DNA from: a virus
Lineage: Duplodnaviria > Caudoviricetes
DNA length: 51,796 nucleotides
Strand: one strand, 5' to 3'
IMG/VR virus record: IMGVR_UViG_3300020125_000256
Coordinates: 1 to 51,796 of that record
Of the stretch, positions 4,002-35,155 are shown in pieces; the first letter of the stretch is position 1, and every line of letters begins with the position of its first letter. The translations under genes and the position numbers were made by a program. Under the pieces are notes generated by a model. The model worked only from the letters and a program-made list of their open reading frames with translations. It was not told where the DNA came from and ran no database searches.

Positions 4002-4264
4002 CCTGTGAAGAGTTCCGCACCCTAGTAAGCCGCTTCCGCACTATCCCCACCGCTGCCGAGGTAATCAGCGTAGTTGTGCACGCTCGCAAATGCCAAACGT
4101 GCAGGGCGTTTGTTATAACGCGGGATAACCTGGCCGAACAAAGCATGACGCCCGAGCAAATCGAAGGCTGTCGTCAATTATCTAACGCTGTCGCTGCCAA
4201 CGCCCTGGCCAGATTGCGGGAAGACCCTGAACTACAAGACATGATGAAAGGAGCCAATAAATGA
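3998..4264 (+). CDS. zf-HC2/ZAS-like zinc-finger protein
   Basis: MTCEEFR...HARKCQTC (N-terminal Cys plus HxxxCxxC). Confidence 0.5.
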   Translation: MTCEEFRTLVSRFRTIPTAAEVISVVVHARKCQTCRAFVITRDNLAEQSMTPEQIEGCRQLSNAVAANALARLREDPELQDMMKGANK

Positions 4265-5022
4265 GCCAGCCTAATCAGCTTGAACGTTCAAGCGGCGTCA
4301 CCAATCCTCTCGTCTTGCTGGAAGCCGCCATCAAGAAAGGCATTAAGCCCGAGGAACTGGGCAAGCTTCTGGACTTGCAAGAGCGATGGGAACGCAATAG
4401 GGCCGCCGAACAATATGCGGGGGCTATCACGCAATTTCAAGCCAAAATGCCAGCCGTCCTTAAAGTCAACCCCGTGAAAAACAAGGCTGGTCAGATAATG
4501 TACCACTTCGCCGACTTCGCGGACGTAATGGACATTGTTCAGCCCATCGCCTCGGAATGTGGGATTGTCATCACCTTTGACACCGAGCCGCAGGAAAAAC
4601 GTCTCAAAGTAACCTGCAATATCCGCGTTGGCACGCACGTTGAACATGCCCATGCCTACGTTTCCGTGCCCAATATCCCCAATGCCAACGATACCCAGCA
4701 AGATGGGGGAGCCATTGCTTTTGGCAAGAGGTACGCTGTTTGTGCTGGCCTGGGCATCCGCATTAAGGGCGAAGATAACGACGCCAGGTTTGACGACCAA
4801 AGCTTGACCGCTCAAGAGACAGAGGAGATAAACTCGCTCATTGAAGCATGCCGTTTGGCGGGTCGCTCGGACGCTGGTATACAACAGTTCTGGGACTGGA
4901 TTTTTAAGGAGACCGACACCACGAAACGCTTGGCCGAGATGCCACGAACCGATTTGGGACGGGCCAAGGTTGCTCTCCAGGAATGGCTCAAGAAGTATGG
5001 CAAGAAAGGGGGTGGCCAATGA
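4261..5022 (+). CDS. ERF-family single-strand annealing recombinase
   Basis: YHFADFADV and QQDGGAIAFGKRYAVCAGLGI..EDND match ERF motifs (GxxxTYxRRY..xxGI..EDxD); adjacent to exonuclease. Confidence 0.85.
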   Translation: MSQPNQLERSSGVTNPLVLLEAAIKKGIKPEELGKLLDLQERWERNRAAEQYAGAITQFQAKMPAVLKVNPVKNKAGQIMYHFADFADVMDIVQPIASECGIVITFDTEPQEKRLKVTCNIRVGTHVEHAHAYVSVPNIPNANDTQQDGGAIAFGKRYAVCAGLGIRIKGEDNDARFDDQSLTAQETEEINSLIEACRLAGRSDAGIQQFWDWIFKETDTTKRLAEMPRTDLGRAKVALQEWLKKYGKKGGGQ

Positions 5023-5657
5023 TCGAATATAACGTCGAGCAGGGTAGCCCCGAGTGGTTCGGCCTGCGCCTGGGCCGCCCCACAGCCAGCGAGTTTAGCC
5101 GCATTCTCACCCCGGCCAAAGCCGATTACTCGGCCCAGGCCGCCGACTACATCGACGAGTTAATCGGCATCAAGCTGAATGCCCTGGACGGCCGCTTCCC
5201 CCCCTGGGTCGAAAAGTATACCTCGCGGGACATGGCCAATGGCGAGGCATTCGAGGCCGAGGCCCGCTTCTGGTATGCCATGGAGACAGGCAACCGCGTT
5301 AGGCAAGTGGGGTTTGTCACCACCGACGACGGGCGCTTTGGCTGTTCGCCTGATGGCCTGATCGACCCGGACGGTGGCCTGGAGCTCAAATGCCCGCACC
5401 CATCAACCCAAATGTACCGGCTGCGCAAGGGAGTCCTGCCCAACGAGTACAAGGGCCAGGTACACGGGGCTTTGGCCATCACGGGCCGGAAATGGTGGGA
5501 CTTCGTTTCCTACTGCCATGGCCTGCCCAAATTCATGGTGCGGGTCGAGCCGGATGACTTCACCGAGAAGCTCAAGGCCGCCCTGGAGAAGTTCTGGACC
5601 GACTACCAGAAGGTTTTAACCCGGTTCGGTCTTGACACGGTCAACGCACAAGTTTAA
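5019..5657 (+). CDS. YqaJ/lambda-exonuclease-family 5'-3' exonuclease
   Basis: QGSPEW..LRLGRPTAS, GCSPDGL, LELKCP, QVHG..W.DFVSY motifs. Confidence 0.92.
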   Translation: MIEYNVEQGSPEWFGLRLGRPTASEFSRILTPAKADYSAQAADYIDELIGIKLNALDGRFPPWVEKYTSRDMANGEAFEAEARFWYAMETGNRVRQVGFVTTDDGRFGCSPDGLIDPDGGLELKCPHPSTQMYRLRKGVLPNEYKGQVHGALAITGRKWWDFVSYCHGLPKFMVRVEPDDFTEKLKAALEKFWTDYQKVLTRFGLDTVNAQV

Positions 5658-5660
5658 TAT
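5632..5660 (+). promoter_or_regulatory. Candidate sigma70 promoter for the ParB-like/helicase operon
   Basis: TTGACA (5632-5637), 17 nt spacer, TAATAT (5655-5660). Confidence 0.5.
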
Positions 5661-5775
5661 CACGTCCCTCGCTTTGACCACCGAACACTTTTTCCGATCT
5701 TGCCCCCCCGGGCCGGCACTTCAAGCAAAGCGAGAGAACCCGGCTCGGGGGCGGCATTTTTAGAGGTACACATCC

Positions 5776-6468
5776 ATGAAGACCAAGCCCATTGCGGTCC
5801 CCGCAAACTGGAAGACGGCAAAGATTCACCCCTTGGCCGAACTGATCGAGTTCGGCAGCAACATCGACCTGGACGCCATGACGGAGCACGCCAAGAAGCA
5901 CGGCTATGACAAGGATGAAGCCCTGGTGTTCTTCGATGGCATGGTTCTGGAAGGCCGGCACCGGCGGGAAATCTGCAAGCGCATTGGCGTTATCCCGCCT
6001 TGCCGGGAGTTTGTGGGCACCAATGCGTTTGCATACGTGGCCAAGAAGATATTCCGCCAGCATTTGACCACGGCAGAGCGGGCCAAGATAGCTGCCAAGC
6101 TGGCCGATATGCCGGTGGGACGCCCGGAATTAAATGTGCCAAATGGCACAATTGATTCCTCGTCGGCAAAGATGACAGCAACGGCTGCAGCAAAGGCCCT
6201 GAACGTCAGCCGGCGCTCCGTGCAAAGGGCCAAAGCTGGCCCGACGCCTCGCAAGCCCAAGCCGAAAACTGGCGGGGCCATCATCGACTGGAAGGACTTC
6301 TACAACCACTTCGGATCCCTCGTGCGTGCCATTGTCAGCGTTGGGAAAGGCTATCAGTGCCAGCACAGCGACGTTGCCACGAACCTTGAGCGTAGGCTGG
6401 CCGCATTCAAAGAGGAGTTCACCAAATGGGTTGAGTTCCACACCAAGGAAAAGGCACCGAGGTACTAA
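5776..6468 (+). CDS. ParB/Srx-like N-terminal domain plus HTH protein
   Basis: IHPLAELI...VLEGRHRREIC resembles the ParB GxxR motif; RQHLT..ERA; AAKALNVSRRSVQRAK HTH. Confidence 0.75.
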   Translation: MKTKPIAVPANWKTAKIHPLAELIEFGSNIDLDAMTEHAKKHGYDKDEALVFFDGMVLEGRHRREICKRIGVIPPCREFVGTNAFAYVAKKIFRQHLTTAERAKIAAKLADMPVGRPELNVPNGTIDSSSAKMTATAAAKALNVSRRSVQRAKAGPTPRKPKPKTGGAIIDWKDFYNHFGSLVRAIVSVGKGYQCQHSDVATNLERRLAAFKEEFTKWVEFHTKEKAPRY

Positions 6469-8009
6469 TGACACCTTGGCCCCACCAAACCCGAGCGGTC
6501 GAGGCCGTGGTTGATGCCACGACCCGCCAGGTTCGCCGTATCCTCGTTACCGCCCCCACCGGGGCCGGCAAGACGCTCATCATGCAAATGTTGGCCAGCC
6601 TCTGGCTGGAACGCGGCGGCAAGGTGGTTCTCTATTCCAACCGCAAGATGATGATCGACCAACTATCGACCGGTTTAACCGACGTGGGTATCTATCATGG
6701 GGTCAGGGCGGCCGGGCACGATGACGAGAGAGAACACGCATTTCAGGTATCGAGCGTGCAGACCGAGCACAGCCGGGTGACGAAGCGGAAGACATGGGAA
6801 CTTCACAAGGCGGATCTCGTTCTTGTTGACGAGGCCCACATCCAGACTGGCAATGCGGCCAAGGAATTGCTGAGGGCACATTATGAACAAGGCGCAACTA
6901 TTGTCGGAGTTACAGCAACGCCTCTCGGACTCGCTGGACTATATGATGCACTTTTGGTTGCTGGCACCATGTCCGAACTGCGGGCATGCGGTGCCTTGGT
7001 GCCAGCTATCCATTATGGAGCCGACGAACCCGACATGCGAGCCTTCAAGAAACTCCGCGAAGGCGAAGACCCCAGCCAAAGCGAACAGAAAAAAGCCATC
7101 ATGACCCCGAGCATCTTCGGGCGGGTCTGGGAATGGTACGAGAAGCTTAATCCCGAGAGGAAGCCGTGTGTATTGTTCGGGCCGGGGGTTGATGAAAGCC
7201 TGTGGTTTGCCGAGCAGTTCCAAGCCAAGGGTATAAACGCAGCCCATATCGACGGCAACGACGTGTGGCTCTGCGGTCATTGGTATCGTTCGGACACGGA
7301 AGCCCGAGATCGCGTGCGGCACATGCACCAAATAGGGGAACTCAAGGTAGTCTGCAACCGCTACGTCCTCCGCGAAGGCGTGGACTGGCCCTGGATCGAG
7401 CACATTATCCTTGCGTTCGTCGCCGGCTCCCTTCAGACTTACATCCAGACCTGCGGGCGTGGCCTGCGGGCGTATCCGGGCAAATCGCACCTCATTATCC
7501 AGGATCACGGCGGGGCCTGGTGGCGGCATGGTTCAATCAACATGGACCGGGAATGGAATCTGGAACTCACCGGCGAGATCGCTTATGGACTTCGGGCCGA
7601 GCGGCTGCGGAAGAAGAAGCAAACCGAGCCGTTCCGCTGTCCCAAGTGCGGCCGAGTGTGGGGGATTGGGACCAAATGCCAACCGGCACATGGAGGCTGC
7701 GGGTTTGAACTTGGCCTGGGAAGGCGCTCGCGGCCGGTTGTGTCCACCGATGGGCAGCTCAAGGAGATGGTCGGGGACATCTTCAAGCCGCGGCGGATCA
7801 GCAAAGACCCGCGAGGGCCGGATATTTGGGAGAAGATGTACTGGCGATCCAGGAAAGGCAAAGGTACGCGGACCTTCCGGGCGGCTTGTGCCCTGTTTGC
7901 CATAGAAAACAACTGGTCGTGGCCGTCTCCGGACTGGCGGTTCATGCCGGTCGATGAGATGGACTTTTTCAAACTAGTGTCTGATGTTCCAATGGAAAGA
8001 CTCAAGTAA
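6468..8009 (+). CDS. Superfamily 2 DEAH helicase with C-terminal Zn finger
   Basis: Walker A APTGAGKT; DEAH; TAT; QTCGRGLR; CPKC...C. Confidence 0.93.
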   Translation: MTPWPHQTRAVEAVVDATTRQVRRILVTAPTGAGKTLIMQMLASLWLERGGKVVLYSNRKMMIDQLSTGLTDVGIYHGVRAAGHDDEREHAFQVSSVQTEHSRVTKRKTWELHKADLVLVDEAHIQTGNAAKELLRAHYEQGATIVGVTATPLGLAGLYDALLVAGTMSELRACGALVPAIHYGADEPDMRAFKKLREGEDPSQSEQKKAIMTPSIFGRVWEWYEKLNPERKPCVLFGPGVDESLWFAEQFQAKGINAAHIDGNDVWLCGHWYRSDTEARDRVRHMHQIGELKVVCNRYVLREGVDWPWIEHIILAFVAGSLQTYIQTCGRGLRAYPGKSHLIIQDHGGAWWRHGSINMDREWNLELTGEIAYGLRAERLRKKKQTEPFRCPKCGRVWGIGTKCQPAHGGCGFELGLGRRSRPVVSTDGQLKEMVGDIFKPRRISKDPRGPDIWEKMYWRSRKGKGTRTFRAACALFAIENNWSWPSPDWRFMPVDEMDFFKLVSDVPMERLK

Positions 8010-8022
8010 AAGGAGAATGCAC

Positions 8023-8286
8023 ATGGCCAAGGCAAAACAGGCACACCTGGAAGGCATGGAGCCACCGACCATTGCAGAGGTCGAGGCCGCCGCCGAGAAG
8101 TATTACGACCTGAACGACAAGAGTTGGAAGCTCCGGGAGAAGGTATCCGACGCCAAGGACGAACTCCTGGAGGTCATGAAGGCCAACGACCTAACCGTTT
8201 ACCGGTACGATGACAAGGAGATCACCGTCGTGGACAAGGAGACGGTCAAGGTGAAGCGGCTCCGTGAGAACAATGGGGATGATTGA
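8023..8286 (+). CDS. Hypothetical protein
   Basis: AAGGAG RBS; charged helical 87 aa ORF. Confidence 0.65.
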   Translation: MAKAKQAHLEGMEPPTIAEVEAAAEKYYDLNDKSWKLREKVSDAKDELLEVMKANDLTVYRYDDKEITVVDKETVKVKRLRENNGDD

Positions 8287-8300
8287 AAGGATGGTCAAGG

Positions 8301-8525
8301 ATGACTCGGGAAGAATGTATCCAGAAGTTCCACCACACCCTCTGGGGTATCATGCTGGAAATGGGCCGCTTTCGGGGAGATTGTGCCGCCCGCTCTCTCC
8401 TGGAAGACCAGCTGATGCGGAAGATAGACACGATTATCGGCCTCATATGGTCGGAGTTTAACAAGGTGGCCCATGAAAATAATCGACCCCGCAGCCCTGA
8501 AAACCCCACGAAGCCCGCTGTGTGA
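8301..8525 (+). CDS. Hypothetical protein
   Basis: ORF filling the operon gap; overlaps next gene by ~50 nt. Confidence 0.4.
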   Translation: MTREECIQKFHHTLWGIMLEMGRFRGDCAARSLLEDQLMRKIDTIIGLIWSEFNKVAHENNRPRSPENPTKPAV

Positions 8526-8781
8526 GTGGTGCGGCATCTATACCCGCCGCGAGACCGAGCGGCACCATATCGTCAGCCGGGGCATGGGGGGAGGCAACCG
8601 CCTTGACATCCCGGAGAACCTGATTGACCTCGGAGGGGCCTTTGATTGTGATTGCCACGGCAAGGCCCAGCGGGGGGAAATTAAACAGGTTGAACTCTGG
8701 GTCAAGGTCGGCAACCGCCTGGGGAAGAACTGGCGAGCGTGCAAGTCGAAGGTTTACCGGTTATTGAGGAAACCCAAATGA
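8473..8781 (+). CDS. HNH-like endonuclease
   Basis: CEWCG...ERHHIVSRGMGGG...ENLI.L...CDCH. Confidence 0.75.
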   Translation: MKIIDPAALKTPRSPLCEWCGIYTRRETERHHIVSRGMGGGNRLDIPENLIDLGGAFDCDCHGKAQRGEIKQVELWVKVGNRLGKNWRACKSKVYRLLRKPK

Positions 8782-9350
8782 CCATTCGCGCCGAAAACAT
8801 CAGGGTGATGTACCCCCTATTCCAAGGGGGAAAGGGCGGTTCGATTCCGACCTCGGCGCTTCAACTTGATTTTTGGACAGTCGATTTAGCTACAGCTATC
8901 AATCTGAATAGGCTGTGGCATTCCAGGCTGCCGCGAGTGATCGCGTCCAACATTACGAGAAACCCTACATGGCTTTCTTTCGCTGCGTCATTTGACGGAG
9001 TTTTTTACGCAACGGCAATCTGGACGAACCCTACCGCCCGTTTTTTGCCGTATCACACTTGGCTGGAACTGAGACGGTTTGCCATTGCACCGGATGCACC
9101 GAAGAACACGGCGAGCAGAATGCTCGGGTGGATGGTTCGCGAGATACGAAACTCGTGCAGGCATATTTATCATCTGATTTCCTATCAAGACTGCGATGTC
9201 CATCAAGGTACGATTTACAAAGCGGCTGGTTGGGTTCCTACGCAAAAGAGCTTCGATCATCGCAATAGGGGTTTGAGACCTGGCCGCAAGAGGAACTTGA
9301 GCCAAACCACATCTACGAAGCAAAGGTGGGAGAAGGAAATAAGAAAATGA
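8778..9350 (+). CDS. Mom-family (GNAT-fold) adenine-modification enzyme, copy 1
   Basis: WHSRLP, WTNPTAR, LELRRFAI, ISYQD..VHQGTIYKAAGW, KQRW motifs; GAGGA RBS; ATGA overlap with HNH stop. Confidence 0.82.
   Translation: MTIRAENIRVMYPLFQGGKGGSIPTSALQLDFWTVDLATAINLNRLWHSRLPRVIASNITRNPTWLSFAASFDGVFYATAIWTNPTARFLPYHTWLELRRFAIAPDAPKNTASRMLGWMVREIRNSCRHIYHLISYQDCDVHQGTIYKAAGWVPTQKSFDHRNRGLRPGRKRNLSQTTSTKQRWEKEIRK
8788..8863 (+). tRNA. tRNA-Gly(UCC)-like cloverleaf nested in the mom coding sequence
   Basis: Acceptor GCGCCGA/TCGGCGC (7/7); D-arm ACATC-AGGGT-GATGT; anticodon arm CCCCC-TATTCCAA-GGGGG; T-arm GGCGG-TTCGATT-CCG(A)CC; discriminator T followed by TCA. Confidence 0.8.
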
Positions 9351-9371
9351 TCCGTCAATGGAGGATACAAA

Positions 9372-9830
9372 GTGAAAGCCTCGGCTGACGAAATCGCTGC
9401 CTTTGAAAAGCTGGCTCTGGAGCGTGGGGGATCGGTGGGCCGTGCACCGGGCAGGCAGAACGAGCGAACTGCGGCAACGGACACGGCCCATGTTCAACTA
9501 CCCACCAATTACTCTGAAAAGGAATTCCTGGACGACGTTATCGCCATAGCCCGCCGCTGCGGGTGGAAGGTGGCCCACTTCAGGCCAGCCAAGACGGCCA
9601 AGGGCTGGCGTACAGCGGTCCAGGGTGACGGTAAGGGTTTCCCTGACATCATTTGTCTCCGCCGTGGCGTTATCCTCGTTGCTGAACTCAAGGTCGGCAA
9701 AAACAAGGAGACCCCAGAACAAGAGGTATGGCTGGACGAGTTCCGCCATGCAGAAGATTACCATGGCTGGGTGAAGGTCTACGTGTGGCGCCCCGAGGAC
9801 TGGAAGACCATTGAGGAGGTCCTAAGGTGA
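9372..9830 (+). CDS. VRR-NUC (PD-(D/E)xK) nuclease
   Basis: GFPDII...VAELKV...TPEQEVWL...VWRPEDW. Confidence 0.85.
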   Translation: MKASADEIAAFEKLALERGGSVGRAPGRQNERTAATDTAHVQLPTNYSEKEFLDDVIAIARRCGWKVAHFRPAKTAKGWRTAVQGDGKGFPDIICLRRGVILVAELKVGKNKETPEQEVWLDEFRHAEDYHGWVKVYVWRPEDWKTIEEVLR

Positions 9831-10528
9831 GCCGACCTCGCTTGCTTGATTTGTTCTGCGGCGCCGGTGGCTGTGCAATGGGATACTATCGGGCCGGGTT
9901 TGATGTGGTCGGCGTGGATATCAAGCCGCAACCGCGTTTCCCGTTTCCGTTCGAACAGGGCGACGCAATCTTGAAGCTTCGGCATTTGCTGGACTCGGGT
10001 TTTATTTACCCGAACGGAAAGCCGCTTCGCCTGGAAAACTTCGCCGCGATCCACGCAAGCCCGCCCTGCCAGATTCACAGCCAGAGCAAAAATATTTGGA
10101 AAGGACGAAGGGGCGACGGAAGCCATCAAGACCTCGTGCCAGATACCCGGCGACTTCTTGAAAAGTCCGCCTTGCCATGGGTCATTGAGAATGTTGTTGG
10201 ATCGCCGCTCACGACTAACCTGACCCTCTGCGGCAGTATGTTTGGCCTCAAAGTCAAGAGGCACCGCTTGTTTGAAACAAGCGTACTTATTCTCAGTGGA
10301 CTCACCTGTCGAAAAGGGCATCCTGAGTTCGAAGTAAGCGTGTTCGGAGGCGGGGCGAAAGGAAGGCGACAAGGCCACAAATTTCCTCAAAACCATGTGA
10401 AGCACGAAGTAGCCAAGATTGCCATGGGCATAGACTGGATGACGCGGGACGAACTTAGCCAGGCCATACCACCGGCGTACACGGAGTACATCGGCAAGCA
10501 ATTACTCCGGCACATTCAGGACCATTGA
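9827..10528 (+). CDS. Short DNA (cytosine-5) methyltransferase
   Basis: Motif I DLFCGAGG, motif IV ASPPCQ, motif VI VIENV, motif VIII RHRLF, motif X QAIPP. Confidence 0.88.
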   Translation: MSRPRLLDLFCGAGGCAMGYYRAGFDVVGVDIKPQPRFPFPFEQGDAILKLRHLLDSGFIYPNGKPLRLENFAAIHASPPCQIHSQSKNIWKGRRGDGSHQDLVPDTRRLLEKSALPWVIENVVGSPLTTNLTLCGSMFGLKVKRHRLFETSVLILSGLTCRKGHPEFEVSVFGGGAKGRRQGHKFPQNHVKHEVAKIAMGIDWMTRDELSQAIPPAYTEYIGKQLLRHIQDH

Positions 10529-11353: not shown

Positions 11354-11473
11354 GGCTATCGGGGCGGGCACGGTGACCCGTGAAAACGTCAAGGGCGTTA
11401 AGCTCTGTATCCCTACTTCGGTGTAGGTCGTGAGGCGTAAAAAATCAGCCGGTTCGACTCCGGCCGGTAGCCT
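11354..11473 (+). ncRNA. tRNA-like RNA (8-bp acceptor, 5-bp T-arm) with branched domain in place of the anticodon arm
   Basis: GGCTATCG/CGGTAGCC closing stem; GCCGG-TTCGACT-CCGGC T-arm; internal hairpins; lies between ORFs. Confidence 0.65.
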
Positions 11474-11576
11474 TTTCGGAAACCCACGGGACCCACTCAT
11501 GCGTTGTGATTGGGCCTCGTCCCTGCCCGGTAGCCGGTTGGCCGGGGCCGGGCTTTACTTAAAGAGCGTTTTTGGC

Positions 11577-12134
11577 ATGAGGTTACTCAATCCACTTTGG
11601 GACAAAGAAACGCCACCACCGCCGTCATGCCGCCAATTGACGCTCGAAATCGTTGACTTTCTCTGGGCCAAGAGGCTGAACAAACAATGGCATTCGCGTT
11701 TGCCACGTATGGGGACAGGTTTTGTGGCTTCCATGCCATTCCTGTCCTTTGCCGCCTCGCACGAAGGGACAGCCTATGCGGTGGCCATTTGGTCCAATCC
11801 GGTCGCCCGAAACCTGCCCCAGCAGACTTGGCTCGAACTCAGGAGATTGGCCGTGGCGCCAGACGCCCCGAGGTACACGGCAAGCTGGATGCTCGGCAAA
11901 ATGACGCGGCATATTCGGAAGTGGCTGCCAGAAATAGAGAATCTCATCAGTTACCAAGATTTAGAGGTTCACACCGGCACCATTTACAAGGCCACTGGCT
12001 GGCTTCCTACCGTATCCAGCAAGGAAGGTGCTGGAATATGGGACAGACCAGGCAGAAGGCGTCCCAAGGCCCAATCTGAGGCCGGCAAACAAAGATGGGA
12101 AAAATGGTTGACAGGCGGGGTGGGTTCGGGGTAG
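11577..12134 (+). CDS. Mom-family adenine-modification enzyme, copy 2
   Basis: WHSRLP, WSNPVAR, LELRRLAV, ISYQD.EVHTGTIYKATGW, KQRW; start uncertain (in-frame GTG at 11430 also exists). Confidence 0.82.
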   Translation: MRLLNPLWDKETPPPPSCRQLTLEIVDFLWAKRLNKQWHSRLPRMGTGFVASMPFLSFAASHEGTAYAVAIWSNPVARNLPQQTWLELRRLAVAPDAPRYTASWMLGKMTRHIRKWLPEIENLISYQDLEVHTGTIYKATGWLPTVSSKEGAGIWDRPGRRRPKAQSEAGKQRWEKWLTGGVGSG

Positions 12135-13912: not shown

Positions 13913-16900
13913 TCACCGGGCCGGCACCCAAATCTGACGATATCCAGGCTCTGCCCCTGGTGGCCTCTTTCTCTCCCTGACGCCAAAAGGCCCAAGCAAT
14001 CTTCTCCAATCAGTCGGTTCCGTTGCCCGGGCCCTTTCCTTGCCGGCCACCGTGGCTATCAGAGGATTGGCATTCCAGGCGGCGGCGATGAAGTCGTTCC
14101 ATGCCTGGTTTTCTCCACCTCTGGCCTCTTCGGAAACTCGCATTCCCATGGCATTTTCGCCGGTCGCCATGGTGTGGATGAACTGGGCAACCGGCCCAAA
14201 GACAGGATGGGACAGGGAGTGAATGATATCGTCCCTGGCCTTGGTCGCAGTTGGCCCAAAGCGGGCACCGGCCCGTCTTCCCTCGATGTTGGCCAGCAGG
14301 CCGGTTTCGCGTAGGCCGCGTGTCAGGCCGGTCAGGTTGGTGAGGTCGAAGTAGGATGTCTTGCCTTCCTTGCTCCCGAGCTTGATGGCGCCAAATGGCG
14401 TATTGTCGTCTCCGTCAGCACGTCCCCATAACCTCCAGTTGGTGAAGGCAACGGCACCGGCAACGGCAGCAAACCTTCCCAGGACGTTCATACGGAGTTT
14501 GAAGGCCGCCTCGGGGCTAGTTGCCTTGACCCCAGGAGAGAGGAAGAGATTGCCAAGTCCTTGAGCATAGTAGTTGCTGCCGGCCGTCGCGAATGGTCCC
14601 AAGCCGGTATCGCGTAGCCAGGCGACGATCTTGTTTTGGCCGCGGCGGTTATACTGGCCAAGCTGGTTGATGAAATCGCGACGATTGGCTTCACTCCCCT
14701 CTACCAGGCCGCTGCGGTGAAGTTTGTCGAAAGCGTTGTCTGCCGTCAGCCGCATGGTCCTTTGCATGAAGTCAAGGAACTTACCTCCCCAGGTGGTTGG
14801 GTCCCATTTGCCTCCCCAGAGAGTGCCTGACTCCAAGCCGCTTTCCTTGAGGGCGCCAATCCTGGCCAGATCGACAAGCTGTTCACGGATGGCCGGATCG
14901 CCACGGATTATTCCCATGGCATTCTTGGCAAGGTTGATGGGAGACATACCGGGCTTCATCATCATCGTCATCAGGTTCTTGCCGTGGTAGGCAACTTCCA
15001 CCGTCGAGGCCAAAGAGAAGCGGGTAAGCAAACCTGAACCGAATATCTTGCCCCAGCGTTCATTCACATCCAATGCCTTGACGAGCTCGGGCAAGGCATC
15101 GGAATGGACGTAGAAGCTGGTCTGGCCAGCCTTGGCAGCCTGAGTTCCTCGGGGTGGTGATGTAAATGGCACTTCCGACATGCCTTCATGTTGCTGGCCA
15201 GGTTTTTCCCAGAAGCCAACGCCCTTGCTTTCCATGGTCCGGAACATCTCTGCCTTGGCGGCCACGCTGGACCGACGGGAGAGCGAGTTCTCAATGATAC
15301 TTCCCAAGTCGATGTCGTAGCCGAAAGCGGCCCCGGTGGCTTCCTGGGCAAACACGTCACGTTTGATCTTCACGTTCTTGATCCGGGCCGGCGGCTCTCC
15401 GGTAAAGACGGTGCTGGCCGTTGGCTGTTCGCCCTCGGCGTAATGCTTGAGGTTGACCGGTTCGCCGGGTATCTGCGTCCGGCTGTTGATGGGGTCGGTG
15501 TCTTCCAGGCCAGCGGCACGGCGGTAGAAGTCGTCAATGACAGGGACAAAATGTTCGCGATAGCGCTGAAAGACTTCCTGCATGAATGGACTATTCAGCG
15601 CTTGCTGATATTCCGCCTCGCTGGCAAGGGGGGAGTTGGGCTGGCCGACAATGGTTTTGACTCTGGCCGCCTTTTGGCGGGCTTCCTGGAGGAGATCGAA
15701 TGCATCGGCCTTGGCTTTGGGGTTGGGGGCATAAAGCCAGTCTTGGTGGGCCTGCATGATGTCTTGATTGTGCGTTTCCCTGATTTGGCGAAGACGGCGT
15801 TCGGTGATGACGGCCCCGGCGAGACGGCGAGTGTTCTGGTCGGCCTTGTCGCCAAGAATCTTGTCGATGTAGTAGGGGGCTGCTTCCTTGGCATAGCCAT
15901 TGGCGGCAACGTAACGGACGGTAGCCTCGCCGCTCTCTTGATCCAGGCCATGGATGCGAGGGAACATCTTGCCGCCCAGTTCTTTCATGCCATTCCAGAT
16001 TGTGGATACGGTTTGCCTGACTCGTGCCGCCATGGCAGCAACGTCCTGGCTGAACCCTGGTGGACCGGCCACGATGCCTTGCTGGTTGCGGATCAGGTCT
16101 TGGACAAGGGCAACGCCAGGGTCGATCGCTTCCTTGATAGGTGGGGCTACTCCTGCTCCGGGGGGCTCTCCTCGAACCCCTCCGGCACTTCCAGGCTCGG
16201 GGCCGGCTGCTGCTCCGGGCTCGGCTGTTGTTCGGGCTGCACTTGGGGCTGGCTCTGCTCCGGATCCGGCAGCGGCATCGGGGGGAGCTGCGGCCTGATT
16301 TTGCCTCGCGATGGCTTCGTCTCCGAAGACATCCGCAAGCTCTTGGCCGGCACGCCACTCGTCCCGGAAGCGTTCCTCTTCCGTAATTTCGCTCCTAACT
16401 TCGCTTTCAATGCGTGCAATGTCTTCGCGTACCTTGTCGGCAGGCCGTTTAGCCAGTTGACCTTCTTTTTCGGCATTGGCTACCTCCTCCGGTGCTATCT
16501 TTCTGATTTGCTCGACCACGAACTCGTTGAATGGATGCTTGAATGCCTCAACCTGGGCCTGGGCATTAATCCCACGGGCTTTGCTGGGGGGAGCTCCCCT
16601 GATCTGCTGGCCCTTGAGTCCCAGTTCTTGCTTGAGGCTGGCAATGAGGGCCAGGTTTTGCTCGGGCTCGAAATGGTCATTCATCACCTGGAGCATCTTG
16701 CCGACTTGCCATTTGTTGCCCTGGGCCATGGCCTCGCGAACGGCAGAGATAACGGCCTCGGGGTGGGGCCTTACGACGTTACCACCGGCCGCACCGCCTC
16801 GGGCAGCGGCAGTTCCAGATGGGGCGTTTTCTTGGGCAAGCCCTTGAGCTGTTTGACCCGCAGGTGGGGCGCCAGTTGGCTGTCCCGGTACTTCGCCGGT

Positions 16901-19141
16901 GGCTGTAGGTCGAACGGGTGTCTCTGGAGTAAGTGGTAAGCCGCCCGTAGGTTTAGCTCTTTTCTTCGGGCCTGGGCTTGATAACTCTTGATTAAGTGCA
17001 GAAGATCGCTCACGGAAGGTCCTTTCTATTTCCGGGGTCAAGGTGTTCTGGTCAATGTGCTGCATGTATTCATCGGCAATGTCCTGAAGCTCCTGCTGGA
17101 TTTCAGCATAACGGTCGGCATGGTCCTTTATCTTCTCTCGTCCCTGCGGAGTTATTTCACGCAACTCGCTGATCGGCACCGTCTTGCCCTTGGCAAGCAT
17201 GTCAATTTTCTTTTCCTCACGCTCTGGAACGCTCAAAGACTTCTCCGTCGTCAATTCTGGCCGTCCCATCCTTCGGAAGACTTCCTTTTCGATTTGCCTG
17301 ATGCGTTCGTGTGACAATTTCTGGGGTGCCTGCGGATCAGCCGCCATTTGGCGGTAGGGAGTCCGCAAGGCCATGCGGTTCAGAACTACCCAGCGTTCCA
17401 AGGGCGAGGCATCCACGGCATCAAGGGCTTCAGTTATGGCCCCAGCATCTCCGGCCTGCATTCGAGCCGACAGCCTGCCTATCTTCTCTTTGGGTGACTC
17501 CAGTTGCCCGGATTCAATCTGCCTGCCAACTTCCCTGGCATACTTGCTGAGAACGCTGTTTCCGGGGTAACGGTTGTTTACTGCCTCGATGCCGCCTTTC
17601 TCGAAACTTTCACGAACGTTAGCTTGGATGCTGGCCGGGTTCCTGCCGCTTCTCCGGAGTTGCTCACCCATTCCTGCCAAATCTTGCGGTTGAGGGGCAA
17701 CGGGAGGCTCTGGCGGCTTTGTAAGAGCATCCAGGAAGCCTTGGCCACCTGCTGTTCTGATTCGGGCCTCTATTTCCGCCTGGCTGCCTTTTGTGGTCAG
17801 TCCGAGGCTCTTGGCCACCCTCTTAACGTCGCCAATAGATGGCTGTATTGGGGCTGCTGGAGGCTCGGGAGGTGCTTGGACGGTAGGTGGTGCCTCTGGG
17901 GCCGGTGGAGGCTCAGGCGGGGCTGGTGGGGCCTCCACGGGGGCATTGGCAGGAAATGGTTCTAGATAATGGGCACCGCCAGGTTCCAAAAAGCTAGTGT
18001 CCGGTGGTGTTGGGGCTGGAGGAGGCGGTTCCGGTGGTCTTGGCGGCCCTTGCCAGGCTTCCGGGGGCAGGGATTCGGCCAAATCCAGTGCCATGCCGCG
18101 GGAATAGGTGCTGGGCAGGTCGGAAAACTGGGACATATCCCGATTTCCTTCCTGAACGGCCTGGGAAACGGCCTCTATGGCCTCGCTGGCGTGTTCTCCG
18201 GCTGCCCGGCGGGATAAGCCGGCCCTGGACATCCGATTCATCCAGTTATTGACCGCCTCCATGCTCGGCCTCCCTGGATTGCCATGGGCCACATTGAAGG
18301 CGGCAAAGGTGACGGCACTTACGGCCGCAGAACGTAAACCCTGTTCTGTGCGGTCATTGAGGAGATCATCTAGGGTGCCATAGCCCGATTTGAGGCCGGT
18401 GGCAAAGGCGGCAACATCGGCCAGTTGTTGGCTAAGGACGCCGGTTCCTGTACGGGCCCCGAGGCGGGCAGCATAGTTTTGGAGTCCTCCCCCGACCTCA
18501 CTAGTGGCTCCGAGGACGAGGTTTTGCAGGACACCCAGGCCCAGGGCGGGAGGAAGATCCTCGACGCGACCGCCGCGTTGTGCCCAATCTTCGGCATAGA
18601 GGCTGGGCATAAGGGGGGTAGCGGCTGCTTGGCGGGCCACGAAGCCGCCGACCCGAGAGGCGACGCCGGCACCTTCGGCACCCAGGCGACCGAGGCCAAT
18701 GGCGCCCAGGGCACGTCCGGCCAGGGGACCAGCGGCGACTGACTCGACCAGCATGGCCGGCACGCTCGCCAGGGCGCCACCGATTTCCGCTCCGAGACTT
18801 CTGCCCTGGGCGGCTCGCTGGAACTCTTCCCGCTTGGCAACCAGATCATAATCGGCCTGCTCTGGTCTGCCCTGCTGTATCCGCTCGCGTGCGTTCTGGT
18901 ATTGCCTGTGCTCGATGTGGCCGGCAATGGCACCCGTGAACGGGAAAGGACTGGGAGTGGTCAGAAAGGCAGCCGTATCCGGATCCAGGCCCGTATATCG
19001 TGCCCGTGCTTCCTGCATCTGCTGGACCTGCTCATAACGACGACGCATGTAGCTTTCATCGACGCCTGGGAAGGTTTGCCGAAAGGTATCGGCCACTTCA
19101 TCCCACGGCTTGTCGGCAACGAGCATCTGGTCTTCGGGCAT
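13913..19141 (-). CDS. Large internal virion / DNA-ejection (polyvalent) protein
   Basis: 1742 aa; last gene of structural arm; Ala/Gly-rich amphipathic N-terminus, Pro-rich linkers, helical C-terminus. Confidence 0.7.
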   Translation of the reverse strand: MPEDQMLVADKPWDEVADTFRQTFPGVDESYMRRRYEQVQQMQEARARYTGLDPDTAAFLTTPSPFPFTGAIAGHIEHRQYQNARERIQQGRPEQADYDLVAKREEFQRAAQGRSLGAEIGGALASVPAMLVESVAAGPLAGRALGAIGLGRLGAEGAGVASRVGGFVARQAAATPLMPSLYAEDWAQRGGRVEDLPPALGLGVLQNLVLGATSEVGGGLQNYAARLGARTGTGVLSQQLADVAAFATGLKSGYGTLDDLLNDRTEQGLRSAAVSAVTFAAFNVAHGNPGRPSMEAVNNWMNRMSRAGLSRRAAGEHASEAIEAVSQAVQEGNRDMSQFSDLPSTYSRGMALDLAESLPPEAWQGPPRPPEPPPPAPTPPDTSFLEPGGAHYLEPFPANAPVEAPPAPPEPPPAPEAPPTVQAPPEPPAAPIQPSIGDVKRVAKSLGLTTKGSQAEIEARIRTAGGQGFLDALTKPPEPPVAPQPQDLAGMGEQLRRSGRNPASIQANVRESFEKGGIEAVNNRYPGNSVLSKYAREVGRQIESGQLESPKEKIGRLSARMQAGDAGAITEALDAVDASPLERWVVLNRMALRTPYRQMAADPQAPQKLSHERIRQIEKEVFRRMGRPELTTEKSLSVPEREEKKIDMLAKGKTVPISELREITPQGREKIKDHADRYAEIQQELQDIADEYMQHIDQNTLTPEIERTFRERSSALNQELSSPGPKKRAKPTGGLPLTPETPVRPTATGEVPGQPTGAPPAGQTAQGLAQENAPSGTAAARGGAAGGNVVRPHPEAVISAVREAMAQGNKWQVGKMLQVMNDHFEPEQNLALIASLKQELGLKGQQIRGAPPSKARGINAQAQVEAFKHPFNEFVVEQIRKIAPEEVANAEKEGQLAKRPADKVREDIARIESEVRSEITEEERFRDEWRAGQELADVFGDEAIARQNQAAAPPDAAAGSGAEPAPSAARTTAEPGAAAGPEPGSAGGVRGEPPGAGVAPPIKEAIDPGVALVQDLIRNQQGIVAGPPGFSQDVAAMAARVRQTVSTIWNGMKELGGKMFPRIHGLDQESGEATVRYVAANGYAKEAAPYYIDKILGDKADQNTRRLAGAVITERRLRQIRETHNQDIMQAHQDWLYAPNPKAKADAFDLLQEARQKAARVKTIVGQPNSPLASEAEYQQALNSPFMQEVFQRYREHFVPVIDDFYRRAAGLEDTDPINSRTQIPGEPVNLKHYAEGEQPTASTVFTGEPPARIKNVKIKRDVFAQEATGAAFGYDIDLGSIIENSLSRRSSVAAKAEMFRTMESKGVGFWEKPGQQHEGMSEVPFTSPPRGTQAAKAGQTSFYVHSDALPELVKALDVNERWGKIFGSGLLTRFSLASTVEVAYHGKNLMTMMMKPGMSPINLAKNAMGIIRGDPAIREQLVDLARIGALKESGLESGTLWGGKWDPTTWGGKFLDFMQRTMRLTADNAFDKLHRSGLVEGSEANRRDFINQLGQYNRRGQNKIVAWLRDTGLGPFATAGSNYYAQGLGNLFLSPGVKATSPEAAFKLRMNVLGRFAAVAGAVAFTNWRLWGRADGDDNTPFGAIKLGSKEGKTSYFDLTNLTGLTRGLRETGLLANIEGRRAGARFGPTATKARDDIIHSLSHPVFGPVAQFIHTMATGENAMGMRVSEEARGGENQAWNDFIAAAWNANPLIATVAGKERARATEPTDWRRLLGPFGVRERKRPPGAEPGYRQIWVPAR

Positions 19142-31615: not shown

Positions 31616-34600
31616 TCACGCGGGAACCAAGTCCTGGCAGGTGCAGTTGGTGACAGACCAGCGTGCCGTGTTCCATATGAAAATAGACGCGGCAACGAAA
31701 TCAATATCGGTCATACGCAAGGTGCAGCCGTCCACGATGCCGCCTGGACCGCCGTTCGTGAACACTGCTTGCGGCGAGATGATCGTGCTGTTCAGCACGC
31801 ATCCAAACGGATGGTTGTTCGTGTAATCGACCGCTCCAACAGTCGGGGCAATAACCTTGGAGTTAACAATGCGGGCACTGCGTATGGCGCCCAGGGATGG
31901 AGCGAACCCCGTAACATCAACCGTCACGCCTTCCAGTTGGCCGTAGAGGAAGCCATCAAGCAGGAGGTTATCGGTGAACCCTGCCGTGGGCTTGATGAAG
32001 GTTACGTCAACTCCCTGCCCCTTGATCTTGATCGCCTTGCCGCCGCCGCCGACAAAGAGCAATTGCGAATCGAGGAGATACGTGCCGGCCTGGAGGTTCA
32101 GCGTTCCCGGTCCATTGTTGCCAATGGTCGTCAGGGCACTCGTGAATTTCGCCTTGTCGGTCAGGCCGCCGCCAGCAGGTGCGGCCAAGTTCTGAACGTT
32201 ATGGCTGTAATCGAGTCCAATCGCCTGGGCTGTCGTGATAGTCAAGGTGTCTCCGCAGAGAGACCAGCCGTATTGTCCTCCGTGACCGTTGTGGACCCAG
32301 ACCTGATAAATCCCAACAGGAAGATTGGGGATTGTGAACCGGACCCTGCCTGGAGCCACGCTGAGGTTGGTGCCTGTCGTATCAACGCACGTTGGCGTGC
32401 CTCCGAATGTCGGCACCAGCCAGACCCAGCATTTGGCGGCCGCCACATTGGAGAGGTTGATGCCGTGAACGTTGCAGATGTCTCCGGCAATGCCCGAACC
32501 CGGATAAGCCGTGGTCGTATTCAGCCATCTCGCCTCGGCCCGGTTGACGACAAATGGCTCACCCACCCCAATCGAGTTCTGCGGCCAGACCATGTACATG
32601 TCCGTCGCCGGCAAGCCGGATGGCAGGATCAGGCGAGCCATCTGATGTGCTACATCGACACTGCCGATAAAGACACCCTGGAGGACGGCACCATTGCGTC
32701 CCGAGGCCAGGAAAGTCGTATCGGCAGTAAACTTGTCTCCGAAGATAACGATGGCATCGCCATTGTCGGCCACGCGGAAGTTGCCCTCGGACCACCTGGG
32801 GGCGTTGGCGTTGACGGACACGGCACCCACCGGATAGTTGACCGCATCCATGCCGGCCAGGAGACCAACCCCCGAAGGTGGGGCCTGGAACTGAGGGGCC
32901 GGGAAGCTCGGCGGCGGCGGCGGTGCCGAGGTAACGGTGAACGTGATGCCGTTCGATGTTCCATTGGCGTTGGTGACGGTAATCTGGGCCGTGGTTGCAT
33001 TGACAAGCAAACTGCTCGGAATGACGGCACTCAAAGAAGTTGAGTTGATGAACGTCGTGGTGAGGAAGGTCGAGCCAAACTTGGCCGTGCTCGGGTTGAT
33101 GAAGCCTGTACCCGTGAGATTGATCGTCGTATTGCCCGAACCCGCCTGGACCGATTGGGGAGAAACAGTGGTCAAGGTCGGTACTGGTGGCGGCGGGGGC
33201 GGCGGTGCCGGCGTGATGGTGAAGGTGACTGCGTTGGAGACGCCGCTGGTGTTGGTGACGGTTATCGAGGCTGTGCCATCTGACACAAGCAGCGTACTCG
33301 GGATAACGGCACTCAGGGACGTTGACGTAATGAACGTCGTACTCAGGGACGTGGCATCAAACTTGGCCGTGCTGGGGTTAATAAACCCGGTGCCGGTCAG
33401 GGAGATTGTGGTGTTGCCCGTGCCCGCCTGTACCGACTGGGGAGAAACCGTTGTCAGCGTGGGAGCCGGTGGGGGTGGTGCCGTGATCGTGAAGGTAACG
33501 CCATTGGAGGTCCCGTTCGTGTTCTGCACCGTCACCGTAACGAGGCTGGCCGAGACAAGCAGCGTACTGGGGATGATTGCTGTCAGCGTGGTTGCGTCCA
33601 CAAAGGTCGTGGTCAGGGACGTGGCACCGAAGAAGATCGTGGTGGGGTTGATGAAGTTCGTGCCAACCACGGTCAGGGGCGTATTGATGCTGCCGGCCTG
33701 GGTCGAGGATGGAGTTAGCGTGGAGATACTCGGCAGTATGGGAGGCGGGGCGGCCGTGATGGTGAAGGTAATGGAGTTCGATGTCCCATTGGCGTTGGTC
33801 ACATGCACGCTCACTGTGCCATCTGACGCTAGCAAGGCACCGGAAATCGTGGCCGTGAGCGAGACTGAACTAACGAACGTCGTGGCAATGCTGTTGACGC
33901 CAAAGACCAGAGTGGTGGGGTTGATAAACCCGGTGCCACCGATTGTCACCGGCAAATTGCCGCCACCTGCCTGCACGGACGAAGGCACAATGCTTGTCAG
34001 ACCTGGCACTGGCGGCGGTGGCGACGTGATCGTGAACGTAATGGAGTTTGAGGATCCGTTGGCGTTCGAGACGCTGACGGTCACGCTGCCGGCGGCGACA
34101 AGCGCAGTCGATGGGATGGTCGCCGTGAGCGAGGTGGAGTTGACAAATACCGTGGATAGATGGCTACTGCCGAATATCAGAGTCGTTGGATTGATGAAGT
34201 CCGTGCCGGTAAGTGTGACCGGCAAATTGCCACTCCCGGCCTGCACCGATGATGGTGCCATGCCGGTTAGCGTTGGTACGGGTGCTGGCGGTGGCGGCGT
34301 GACAATCGAGAATGCCAGCGAATTGGACGTGCCATTGGCGTTGGTCACAAAGCAAGGAACATTGCCACCGGTCGCGAGCAGCGTCGAGGGAATCGTGGCC
34401 GTCAGAGACGTGATGCTGCCGAAAACTGTCGAGAGGTTATTGCCGCCAAAAACAAACGTTGTCGGGTTGACGAAGTTGGTCCCGGTGAGCGTAATGGGCA
34501 GATTGCCGCTGCCGGCCGAGGCGGAAGACGGGGCCATGCTTGTCAGGGTAGGCGTTGGCGGTGGTGGATTGGTGCCTACCAGGAAAGTGAAAGGATTGGA

Positions 34601-35155
34601 GGTCCCCCCTCCCGGAGTGGGATTGATGACGGTAATGAACTCCGTCCCGCCCGTCTGCATTGCTATTTGCGGAATGGTGGCGGTAAGCGTCTGCTGATCG
34701 ACAAACGTGCTGAGGATCGTCACGCCGTTGAGTTGTACAACGCTGACGGAGCGGTAATTCGTCCCCGTGATCGTGATAGGCGTGTCTTCCGATCCCTGCT
34801 GGACAGTGCTTGGATTGACATCCGTTATCGTTGGCACCGGCCATTGCACGGTGATCGTCAGGGCGTTGGAGCTCGGCCCGCCCGGAGGACGAAAGACGGT
34901 CACGCCCAGGCTGGTGGGCGTGGCAAAAACGGCCGCGGGAACCAGGGCACACAGCTTGGTAGAGTTCGTGAAAGTGGTGGTGTAGGCTGTGCCACCGACC
35001 TTGATGATATCGCCCAGAACAAAGTTCTGGCCGACGACGTGGACCCACACGTCTGTCAAGATCTCCGCCGGCACTACGGTGGGTGTAATCGAATTGATGA
35101 AGGGGGGCGGTGTGGGTGCGGCGGTTGCGGGCGCCCTGGAGGGAAGTGGAAGCAC
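31616..35155 (-). CDS. IPT/TIG-repeat virion adhesin with pectate-lyase-like beta-helix C-terminus
   Basis: Eight ~90 aa PTLTxxxPxS..ITxTGTxF..SNxxTFTI repeats; GGGLTDKAKFTSAL..LQAGTYLL..IKGQG beta-helix start. Confidence 0.85.
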   Translation of the reverse strand: MLPLPSRAPATAAPTPPPFINSITPTVVPAEILTDVWVHVVGQNFVLGDIIKVGGTAYTTTFTNSTKLCALVPAAVFATPTSLGVTVFRPPGGPSSNALTITVQWPVPTITDVNPSTVQQGSEDTPITITGTNYRSVSVVQLNGVTILSTFVDQQTLTATIPQIAMQTGGTEFITVINPTPGGGTSNPFTFLVGTNPPPPTPTLTSMAPSSASAGSGNLPITLTGTNFVNPTTFVFGGNNLSTVFGSITSLTATIPSTLLATGGNVPCFVTNANGTSNSLAFSIVTPPPPAPVPTLTGMAPSSVQAGSGNLPVTLTGTDFINPTTLIFGSSHLSTVFVNSTSLTATIPSTALVAAGSVTVSVSNANGSSNSITFTITSPPPPVPGLTSIVPSSVQAGGGNLPVTIGGTGFINPTTLVFGVNSIATTFVSSVSLTATISGALLASDGTVSVHVTNANGTSNSITFTITAAPPPILPSISTLTPSSTQAGSINTPLTVVGTNFINPTTIFFGATSLTTTFVDATTLTAIIPSTLLVSASLVTVTVQNTNGTSNGVTFTITAPPPPAPTLTTVSPQSVQAGTGNTTISLTGTGFINPSTAKFDATSLSTTFITSTSLSAVIPSTLLVSDGTASITVTNTSGVSNAVTFTITPAPPPPPPPVPTLTTVSPQSVQAGSGNTTINLTGTGFINPSTAKFGSTFLTTTFINSTSLSAVIPSSLLVNATTAQITVTNANGTSNGITFTVTSAPPPPPSFPAPQFQAPPSGVGLLAGMDAVNYPVGAVSVNANAPRWSEGNFRVADNGDAIVIFGDKFTADTTFLASGRNGAVLQGVFIGSVDVAHQMARLILPSGLPATDMYMVWPQNSIGVGEPFVVNRAEARWLNTTTAYPGSGIAGDICNVHGINLSNVAAAKCWVWLVPTFGGTPTCVDTTGTNLSVAPGRVRFTIPNLPVGIYQVWVHNGHGGQYGWSLCGDTLTITTAQAIGLDYSHNVQNLAAPAGGGLTDKAKFTSALTTIGNNGPGTLNLQAGTYLLDSQLLFVGGGGKAIKIKGQGVDVTFIKPTAGFTDNLLLDGFLYGQLEGVTVDVTGFAPSLGAIRSARIVNSKVIAPTVGAVDYTNNHPFGCVLNSTIISPQAVFTNGGPGGIVDGCTLRMTDIDFVAASIFIWNTARWSVTNCTCQDLVPA
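32930..35110 (-). repeat. Eight tandem IPT/TIG domain repeats with poly-Pro linkers
   Basis: Repeated units in the translation; the last two are the most similar (both begin PTLTTVSPQSVQAG). Confidence 0.85.

Follow-up and report, generated by a model that had tools for sequence, protein, structure and literature searches.

Phage Mu's Mom enzyme takes glycine from Gly-tRNAGly, accepting all three isoacceptors and rejecting Gly-tRNAAla, as described in passages of Silva et al. (Nat Commun 2026, PMC13219725). In Staphylococcus aureus, EF-Tu competes with the transferase FmhB for Gly-tRNAGly, and the bacterium therefore keeps non-proteogenic tRNAGly species for its Fem transferases; how strongly EF-Tu binds a tRNA body depends on the first three pairs of the T stem (both from excerpts of PMC7826273). 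The present analysis concerns IMG/VR virus record IMGVR_UViG_3300020125_000256, taken whole as a 51.8-kb stretch of DNA (the window), in which a tRNA-Gly-like element is encoded in frame within a mom-family gene. Comparison of sequences indicates that positions 8788-8860 are a real RNA gene under selection, of a non-canonical, tRNA-Gly(UCC)-like kind, and the element is probably a trans-acting, private glycyl carrier for Mom. Specifically, it keeps the determinants of glycyl-tRNA synthetase (GlyRS) and the CCA end and is linked to mom in four different layouts, and it is therefore best read as a trans-acting product. Taken by itself the window sequence is only suggestive, and the decisive support comes from its homologues. 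An earlier note on this DNA, made from its letters alone, had named Gly-tRNAGly as the donor of Mu Mom, which the passages of Silva et al. bear out (PMC13219725).

The element runs from G1 to U73 on the plus strand (8788-8860), an assignment that draws on its fold, on covariation and on a score of 89.2 bits against R1, a covariance model built from 35 homologues. The 5' strand of the acceptor stem, GCGCCGA (8788-8794, +), holds G1, C2 and G3 and pairs with TCGGCGC at 8853-8859; the discriminator U73 follows at 8860 (3' strand and discriminator 8853-8860, +), and among 68 unique relatives it is U73 in 63 and A73 in 5. The D arm (8797-8811, +) carries G18 and G19 in its loop, and two-sided changes are seen in three of its four pairs; here the earlier note had drawn a 5-bp stem, ACATC/GATGT, whereas comparison among relatives supports a stem of 4 bp, ACAT/ATGT, closing the 7-nt loop CAGGGTG. 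The anticodon arm (8813-8830, +) pairs CCCCC with GGGGG around an 8-nt loop, TATTCCAA, with UCC at 8821-8823 and C35 and C36 at 8822-8823. The T arm (8835-8852, +) reads GGCGG-TTCGATT-CCG(A)CC, its extra A8850 lying between positions 63 and 64 and thereby inside the three T-stem pairs that set EF-Tu affinity. The acceptor stem, anticodon arm, T arm and bulged A8850 that the note had described are all found in the sequence, and its 8-nt anticodon loop is present in the window; that loop length is not conserved, since relatives have 5-11 nt, and what persists is the CC. Downstream of the discriminator, the trailer at 8861-8863 is UCA in the window and CCA, the family consensus, in the majority of relatives.

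The identity of the element points to glycine. Bacterial GlyRS reads G1-C72, C2-G71, C35, C36 and U73, according to sections of PMC10464925, and this full set, which the earlier note had also singled out, is carried by the window element and by all 35 elements of a protein-anchored alignment, in which G1, C2, G3, C35, C36, C70, G71, C72 and T73 are invariant. Across copies more widely, position 34 is U, C or A and the loop varies between 5 and 11 nt, while the CC is kept. CCA follows the discriminator in 52 of the 68 unique relatives (U73-CCA in 47, A73-CCA in 5) and UCA in 7, the window among them. When R1 was run on five metagenome-assembled genomes (MAGs), its five best host tRNA matches were all tRNA-Gly (52.1 to 40.8 bits), with which the element is collinear save for two additional nucleotides, one of them in the anticodon loop and the other in the T stem, on its 3' strand. 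Five loci (L012, L014, L016, L032 and L078) have the discriminator A73 and retain CCA. A73 has been linked to alpha2-type GlyRS and U73 to alpha2-beta2-type GlyRS, in a passage of PMC3990555, and the A73 elements therefore suggest adaptation to the type of synthetase in the host.

The gene that houses the element is a mom-family open reading frame (ORF) at 8778-9350 (+) of 190 amino acids plus stop, and its codons 4-28 are dual-coding. Its protein begins MTIRAENIRVMYPLFQGGKGGSIPTSALQ and belongs to the Pfam family Mom, PF25680 (E 8.7e-13; 48.8 bits against a cut-off of 27.1). Two residues that are essential in Mu, R111 and S124, align to R100 (invariant, 34 of 34) and S113 of the window protein, a matching that uses a +10 numbering offset inferred from the M107-S124 segment named in Silva et al. 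The acceptor stem starts 10 nt past the mom AUG; beyond 8808 the next in-frame start is the GTG of residue 54 (V54), inside the conserved domain, so the element is translated in the window. A Shine-Dalgarno-like GAGG, read from the sequence at 8766-8769 (+), stands 8 nt before the ATG, and the TGA of an upstream small ORF (8473-8781, +; 102 amino acids) overlaps the ATG at 8778 as ATGA, in agreement with the earlier description of a start with a ribosome-binding site coupled to the upstream stop. That ORF has a weak HNH match (PF01844, E 0.041, below cut-off), and it forms an operon with mom in which translational coupling is likely; in 23 of 68 unique homologous loci the mom start is likewise overlapped or abutted by the stop of an upstream ORF.

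Evidence for the RNA comes from covariation among homologues. The DNA sampled comprised 80 viral and 10 MAG loci of Mom homologues, from which a codon-anchored, gap-free alignment of 35 distinct 73-nt elements was made. In this alignment 91.6% of cells are paired, a level that none of 500 shuffles reached (80.7%); covariation scores 0.320 compared with 0.135, and when the register is slid only 37-50% of cells pair. The acceptor stem is paired in 99.6% of cells with pair 4-69 divided between CG (19) and GC (16) and pair 5-68 occurring as CG 17, AU 11, UA 4, GC 1, UG 1 and other 1, while the T stem is paired in 100% of cells, with compensatory changes from C-G to U-A and from G-C to A-U. The bulge in the T stem and the TTCC of the anticodon loop are invariant in all 35. 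Without a supplied structure, RNAalifold recovers the acceptor, D and T stems, bulge included; it does not predict the anticodon stem, because the register is displaced by one base in a subclass whose D loop has 8 nt and whose anticodon loop has the canonical 7 nt. Of 91 sources, 74 have an R1 match at the mom start, with scores of 62-95 bits, and R1 also picks up a genuine tRNA-Met at 39.6 bits. An alignment fitted to R1 (64 distinct rows, one being that tRNA-Met) has 95.1% of cells paired and two-sided changes in 15 of 21 pairs, and one ascertained from DNA through a T-arm scan has 98.2% paired and 14 of 21 pairs compensatory, with the limits that its T-stem invariance follows from the search pattern and that one row is a real tRNA-Trp. 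The stem covariation and the conserved T-stem bulge that the earlier note had proposed as checks are both borne out, the bulge in the protein-anchored set. An RNA from the antisense strand was rejected, as G.U pairs number 28 and A.C pairs 9 on the sense strand. An attP or integration relic was likewise rejected, both because an att core would not be expected to show compensatory changes and because the element is intact and joined to mom in MAG contigs of up to 254 kb. A subclass of eight loci (L018, L023, L033, L048, L049, L053, L060 and L070) is without G18 and G19 and has G in place of U at T-loop position 55; judged by these sequences, the elbow contact seems to have been lost on both sides together, which is also reported for non-proteogenic tRNAGly.

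Does this conservation belong to the peptide or to the RNA? Mom homologues number 2158 at E <= 1e-3, and among the 120 listed the N-terminal segment is present in 117 and the other 3 are N-terminally shorter; in an alignment of 34 proteins the 28 N-terminal residues rank with the most strongly conserved. The residues encoded by acceptor positions 3-5 and 69-71 covary, as Ala..Ala in 28 and Gly..Pro in 6 of the 34 proteins, and as Ala..Ala in 93 and Gly..Pro in 13 of 111, the other 5 being ambiguous through indels. The swap corresponds exactly to a change from C4-G69 to G4-C69, and further linked swaps are D..S, T..V and GG..PT versus DG..PI. From the element, the frame is open into a Mom protein of 172-266 residues in 74 of 74 R1 cases; element lengths vary by multiples of three only (73 nt, or 76 nt in 3 cases), and an in-frame start lies 3-18 nt ahead of the G1 codon in 63 of 68 unique loci. 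Codon choice within the element is narrow: Phe is TTC in 68 of 68, Gly is GGC in 54 of 59 at one site and GGT in 63 of 68 at another, Pro is CCG in 62 of 68, Thr is ACC in 59 of 60, and the Leu codon that supplies C74 is CTC (48) or CTT (14) and never ends in A or G. Invariant residues of the Mom domain draw on all their codons, and normalised codon entropy is 0.37 for 9 conserved codons in the element versus 0.93 for 48 outside it (one-sided p = 2e-6). The synonymous sites that do vary inside the element are those that covary with their pairing partner, and homologues without the fold use TTT for the same Phe and retain P-L-F. In the AlphaFold model, residues 1-20 are disordered with a predicted local distance difference test (pLDDT) score of 35-40, residues 21-30 reach 83 and the domain exceeds 85; residues 1-20, which score below 50, are the best-conserved stretch of the protein. 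Conservation purely at the protein level was rejected, as synonymous sites are frozen inside the element and the N-terminus is predicted to be disordered.

The association with mom was also recovered from the DNA side. Viral contigs were scanned, independently of any protein, with a 20-nt degenerate motif that represents only the bulged T arm. At least 119 stretches matched, and 80 loci from among them were examined and classified with a hidden Markov model (HMM) of the Mom domain that leaves out the N-terminal part. By R1, 79 of these 80 loci contain the element at full length, and in 74 the element touches a mom gene, in four layouts. Most often it is in frame, at the 5' end of an ORF matched by the Mom HMM (52 loci), cut at the locus start with an in-frame Mom ORF (2) or with weak Mom matches (3); in 12 loci it lies about 10-20 nt downstream of a same-strand Mom ORF, in 4 it overlaps the 3' end of the Mom ORF, and in 1 it is just upstream of Mom with a stop codon between. 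No Mom was seen in 6 loci, four of which have the element at the locus edge, one of which is only 1.4 kb long, and the last of which (L177) holds only the 3' half of the element. Each of the 10 partner ORFs tested is a full-length match to Pfam Mom, at E 1e-40 to 1e-55 and covering model positions 1-202, and in the in-frame partners the Mom domain begins at residue 28, directly after the element-coded peptide. Examples of the 3'-embedded layout are L129 (5804-5876), L137 (12305-12377, -) and L145 (1347-1419). In L137, counting from the coordinates, G1 is the second base of a codon, just as it is in the 5' layout, and this reading frame of the element therefore seems intrinsically open.

Free-standing copies lead to a cultured phage. 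One Mom that partners such a copy is 42% identical to Mu Mom over residues 8-148, and its best cultured relative is in Psychrobacter phage vB_PmaS_Y8A (OQ059336.1), where two tandem elements directly follow the Mom homologue WBF05279.1, annotated as hypothetical, in an unannotated 165-nt gap before the small terminase gene (L235 2162-2229 and 2234-2302; about 7786-7926 of the record). Both are tRNA-Gly-like with a GCG... acceptor, bulged T arm, U73 and CCA and no D arm; they differ from each other by a compensatory pair, and their bulge was found without being required by the search. ARAGORN misses both. Y8A is the only R1-positive cultured phage among those examined and offers a cultured system in which the carrier idea is testable. 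Two other searches of cultured phages gave little: tblastn with the window Mom returned a single weak match, and blastn with a free-standing element returned none.

How tRNA-like is the element by standard measures? In the window its minimum free energy is -34.5 kcal/mol (z = -3.2), with 2 of 200 shuffles equally good, and the tRNA-Sec model of clan CL00001 gives 23.5 bits (E 0.023), under the gathering score of 47. It shares with tRNAs a 7-bp acceptor stem, a D arm with G18 and G19, a TTCRANY T loop and a variable loop of 4-5 nt; it departs from them in having an 8-nt anticodon loop in place of a 7-nt loop with U33 and a T stem interrupted by A8850 in place of five continuous pairs, and in the window it has neither a score above the curated threshold nor a finder call as a tRNA. 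With sub-threshold scores in the window, a bulged T stem and a loop that is not 7 nt, the element is not a canonical tRNA. Its homologues are called more readily: at the mom start, ARAGORN reports a tRNA for 22 of 60 loci (5 as tRNA-Gly(tcc), 17 through a 6-nt-loop reading) and in 18 of 25 further loci (9 as tRNA-Gly), and free-standing copies are called tRNA-Gly(tcc) or tRNA-Gly(ccc).

Mom genes without the element occur as well, one of them in the window itself, which holds one intact element and two Mom paralogues. The second paralogue (11430-12134, +; likely start ATG 11577; Pfam Mom E 1.1e-12) shares 52% identity with the first, and their alignment has a gap of 2 residues near the N-terminus. 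Its N-terminus from ATG 11577, MRLLNPLWDKETPPPPSCRQL, looks like a decayed, 2-residue-shorter copy of the element-coded peptide, and its DNA has no cloverleaf, no R1 match and a fold z of 0.21. No cloverleaf is present in the clade of L063, L067, L069, L072, L073, L075 and L079. In a Mom clade with the N-terminus YSERELTRAVSPLFFRPEEDGSPPQSPRQL, a long hairpin replaces the cloverleaf at the equivalent place (L063 757-843, L069 10-96, L072 1497-1583, L073 184-270 and L079 1497-1583), with an outer stem of 11-15 bp, a consensus energy of -40.9 kcal/mol and 1 compensatory pair among 5 sequences.

In the favoured model, host RNase P would cleave the mom transcript, polycistronic in the window, at G1, and trimming would follow at its 3' side. 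The UCA of the window would be repaired to CCA by the host CCA-adding enzyme, and the released RNA would be glycylated by host GlyRS through G1-C72, C2-G71, C35, C36 and U73. Mom, and probably the second paralogue too, would then draw on this Gly-RNA as a private source of the glycyl group when modifying N6 of adenine in the phage DNA. In turn, the bulged A within the first three T-stem pairs and the odd anticodon loop would keep the RNA off EF-Tu and the ribosome, and translation would thus neither tie up the donor pool nor be drained by it. Where the element is embedded, every transcript would be either translated or processed, and translation and donor production would compete because excision destroys the message; the fold 10 nt past the AUG would probably throttle Mom synthesis too, and in this layout it may have a secondary cis effect on mom translation. 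The fuller version of the model, namely a widespread class of phage Mom with a private, ribosome-excluded carrier, in whose commonest layout the DNA is read twice and the transcript is either translated or cut, the enzyme having co-evolved to recognise the bulged T arm, can be held with about even confidence. If true, the cassette would be self-contained and independent of host tRNA bodies, requiring only the universal rules of GlyRS.

Several points weigh against the carrier model. ARAGORN finds 0 tRNA genes in the window and RF00005 has no match there at E <= 0.001, so that these two of the checks which the earlier note had proposed do not call a tRNA at the element. The embedded layout is costly, as excision destroys the mom mRNA, and RNase P, GlyRS or CCA addition might just as well be hindered by the bulge, by the 8-nt loop and by the loss of the D arm in some variants; for a heterotetrameric GlyRS, one study reports that the arms and the complete L-shape are required (PMC10464925). 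Mom enzymes in general do not need the element: within 800 nt of mom, R1 finds nothing in Mu (best score 5 bits) or in eight other cultured phages (JD024, pAEv1818, PAN70, a Porphyromonas phage, PX29, Q69, SWEP2 and Melnitz-3). Part of the peptide, such as P-L-F or residues 21-30 with their pLDDT of 83, may be selected as protein. On a quick tree of the Mom domain, at least 9 changes are required for pair 4-69 and at least 22 for pair 5-68, and the well-supported branches yield 3 contrasts per base pair, all of which agree, for a sign test that is not significant (p = 0.25). Finally, the search pattern itself accounts for the conserved bulge across the 80 loci, and a single metagenome and a single clade supply the bulk of the 12 downstream cases.

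Among the alternatives, the earlier note had itself set a dedicated carrier beside an autoregulatory mimic. Its claim that the element acts at the RNA level is upheld by covariation, frozen sites and GlyRS determinants, and comparative genomics favours the carrier. A cis-acting mimic, in which a fold in the mRNA is bound by Mom, GlyRS or another tRNA-binding protein and represses or tunes the translation of mom or the stability of its mRNA, as the thrS operator does, while never being released or charged, is unlikely. It would suit the acceptor stem 10 nt past the AUG and, in 63 of 68 loci, a start codon placed 3-18 nt ahead of the G1 codon, Mu mom is also translationally controlled, via Com (annotation of AF083977), and Mom binds the acceptor end of tRNAGly (a passage of PMC13219725). 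Initiation could not be occluded, however, by the copies that lie beyond the mom gene on its downstream side (12 loci), within the 3' tail (4 loci) or in tandem in Y8A; occlusion needs neither C35 and C36 in loops of 5-11 nt, nor U73, nor an encoded CCA, and the second Mom of the window has no such element. That the element is an ordinary phage tRNA-Gly serving translation, through codon supply or rescue from tRNA-cleaving defences, and stands near or inside mom by chance is distinctly improbable. Phages often carry tRNAs, some copies are ARAGORN tRNA-Gly with a 7-nt loop, and the neighbouring locus L144 has other tRNAs. Yet the linkage to mom is near-exclusive in loci found by DNA pattern alone (74 of 80), and no further tRNA is found by ARAGORN or RF00005 in the whole 51.8-kb window. 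Nor would a decoding tRNA be expected to show loops of 5-11 nt, A or G at position 33 in some copies, D-arm-less forms, or an extra A inside the three EF-Tu-affinity pairs that never varies in the protein-anchored set and is shared by the two Y8A copies, and U, C or A at position 34 with C35 and C36 fixed is the pattern of GlyRS recognition and not of decoding.

A tRNA-shaped processing or stability signal, whose cuts would punctuate the operon or set the half-life of mom mRNA and whose RNA would otherwise have no role, is a slim prospect. tRNA-like punctuation is known in other systems, and the operon with its overlapping stop and start would give it a setting; against this, RNase P needs no anticodon CC, U73 or glycine acceptor pairs, which are the most conserved features, and the CCA-ended tandem duplicates and the link to a Gly-tRNA-dependent enzyme would be left unexplained. 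Chance resemblance, or a relic of an old tRNA capture with all conservation at the protein level, is hardly credible. The window score is under tRNA thresholds, and P-L-F and residues 21-30 may matter for the protein, but synonymous sites are frozen inside the element only, radical swaps track pairing (Ala to Pro together with Ala to Gly), and non-coding copies exist while residues 1-20 are predicted to be disordered.

The surroundings of the element are those of a DNA-metabolism module on the plus strand (4261-10528), which holds genes for an ERF single-strand annealing protein (4261-5022, +), a YqaJ exonuclease (4983-5657, +), an SF2 helicase (6468-8009, +), the HNH-like ORF (8473-8781, +), Mom, a VRR-NUC nuclease (9372-9830, +; a weak match, E 0.002) and a C5 cytosine methylase-like ORF (9827-10528, +). 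As the last of these stands beside Mom in the module, the window phage may modify both A and C. Elsewhere in the window there are two very long ORFs on the minus strand, at 13913-19141 (1742 amino acids) and 31616-35155 (1179 amino acids).

These findings, if the carrier model is true, would describe the first known case, so far as the literature was searched, of a tRNA-type gene in frame inside the gene of the enzyme that consumes its product. The search took in full-text literature together with term look-ups in the Silva 2026 paper and the 2023 preprint, the supplementary homologue lists lying outside its scope, and it gave no mom-linked or embedded tRNA. The locus makes a double constraint, on coding and on RNA, measurable, and it lends independent evolutionary support to the view that Mom draws glycine from Gly-tRNAGly. 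Furthermore, it suggests that many phages bring their own donor and sidestep competition with EF-Tu, as staphylococci do for cell-wall synthesis. Such RNAs are missed systematically by tRNA finders and phage annotation, Y8A alone holding two that are unannotated, and the conservation of the Mom N-terminus should be reread as RNA constraint. As a compact and portable module of enzyme and carrier, the cassette may also serve to study or engineer DNA hypermodification.

Set against known systems, the locus resembles parts of several and is nearest to two, Mu Mom with host tRNAGly and the staphylococcal pairing of non-proteogenic tRNAGly with Fem transferases; the element would work in the manner of the second. 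With Mu Mom it shares the Pfam family PF25680, counterparts of R111 and S124, and a donor chemistry that fits the glycine identity of the element; unlike the window phage, Mu has no element and scavenges host tRNAGly, and the window Mom belongs to a distant, shorter subfamily with 27% identity over 60 residues. Plant RNA virus tRNA-like structures and transfer-messenger RNA (tmRNA) also combine a message and a tRNA-like acceptor in one RNA, with an acceptor end that coincides with the molecule's 3' terminus or is made up of the two termini together; the element, in contrast, is internal, needs excision and overlaps translated codons. In thrS-type operators, tRNA mimics in mRNA leaders bind the cognate synthetase, with one arm mimicked, untranslated and acting in cis only. 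The element is like them in placing a tRNA-like fold beside a start codon and unlike them in its full cloverleaf, its CCA and its free-standing copies, and its location is not confined to the initiation region, as it also occurs downstream of mom and in the 3' tail. Like ordinary phage tRNAs it is a tRNA-shaped phage gene of which some copies are ARAGORN tRNA-Gly, and it differs from them in its non-canonical loop and stem, its near-exclusive linkage to mom and its overlap with a reading frame. The tRNAGly species that serve FmhB, FemA and FemB in S. aureus are likewise dedicated, charged by the normal GlyRS and used by tRNA-dependent transferases, and they avoid EF-Tu through changes in the first three T-stem pairs and in the D and T loops, the element subclass without G18 and G19 also having G55; they are chromosomal, free-standing and canonical cloverleaves that differ by base-pair identity (portions of Rietmeyer et al., NAR 2020, PMC7826273). 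Unlike them, the element has a bulge, a variable loop, a phage origin, a DNA target, linkage to the gene of its enzyme and, in the window, dual coding.

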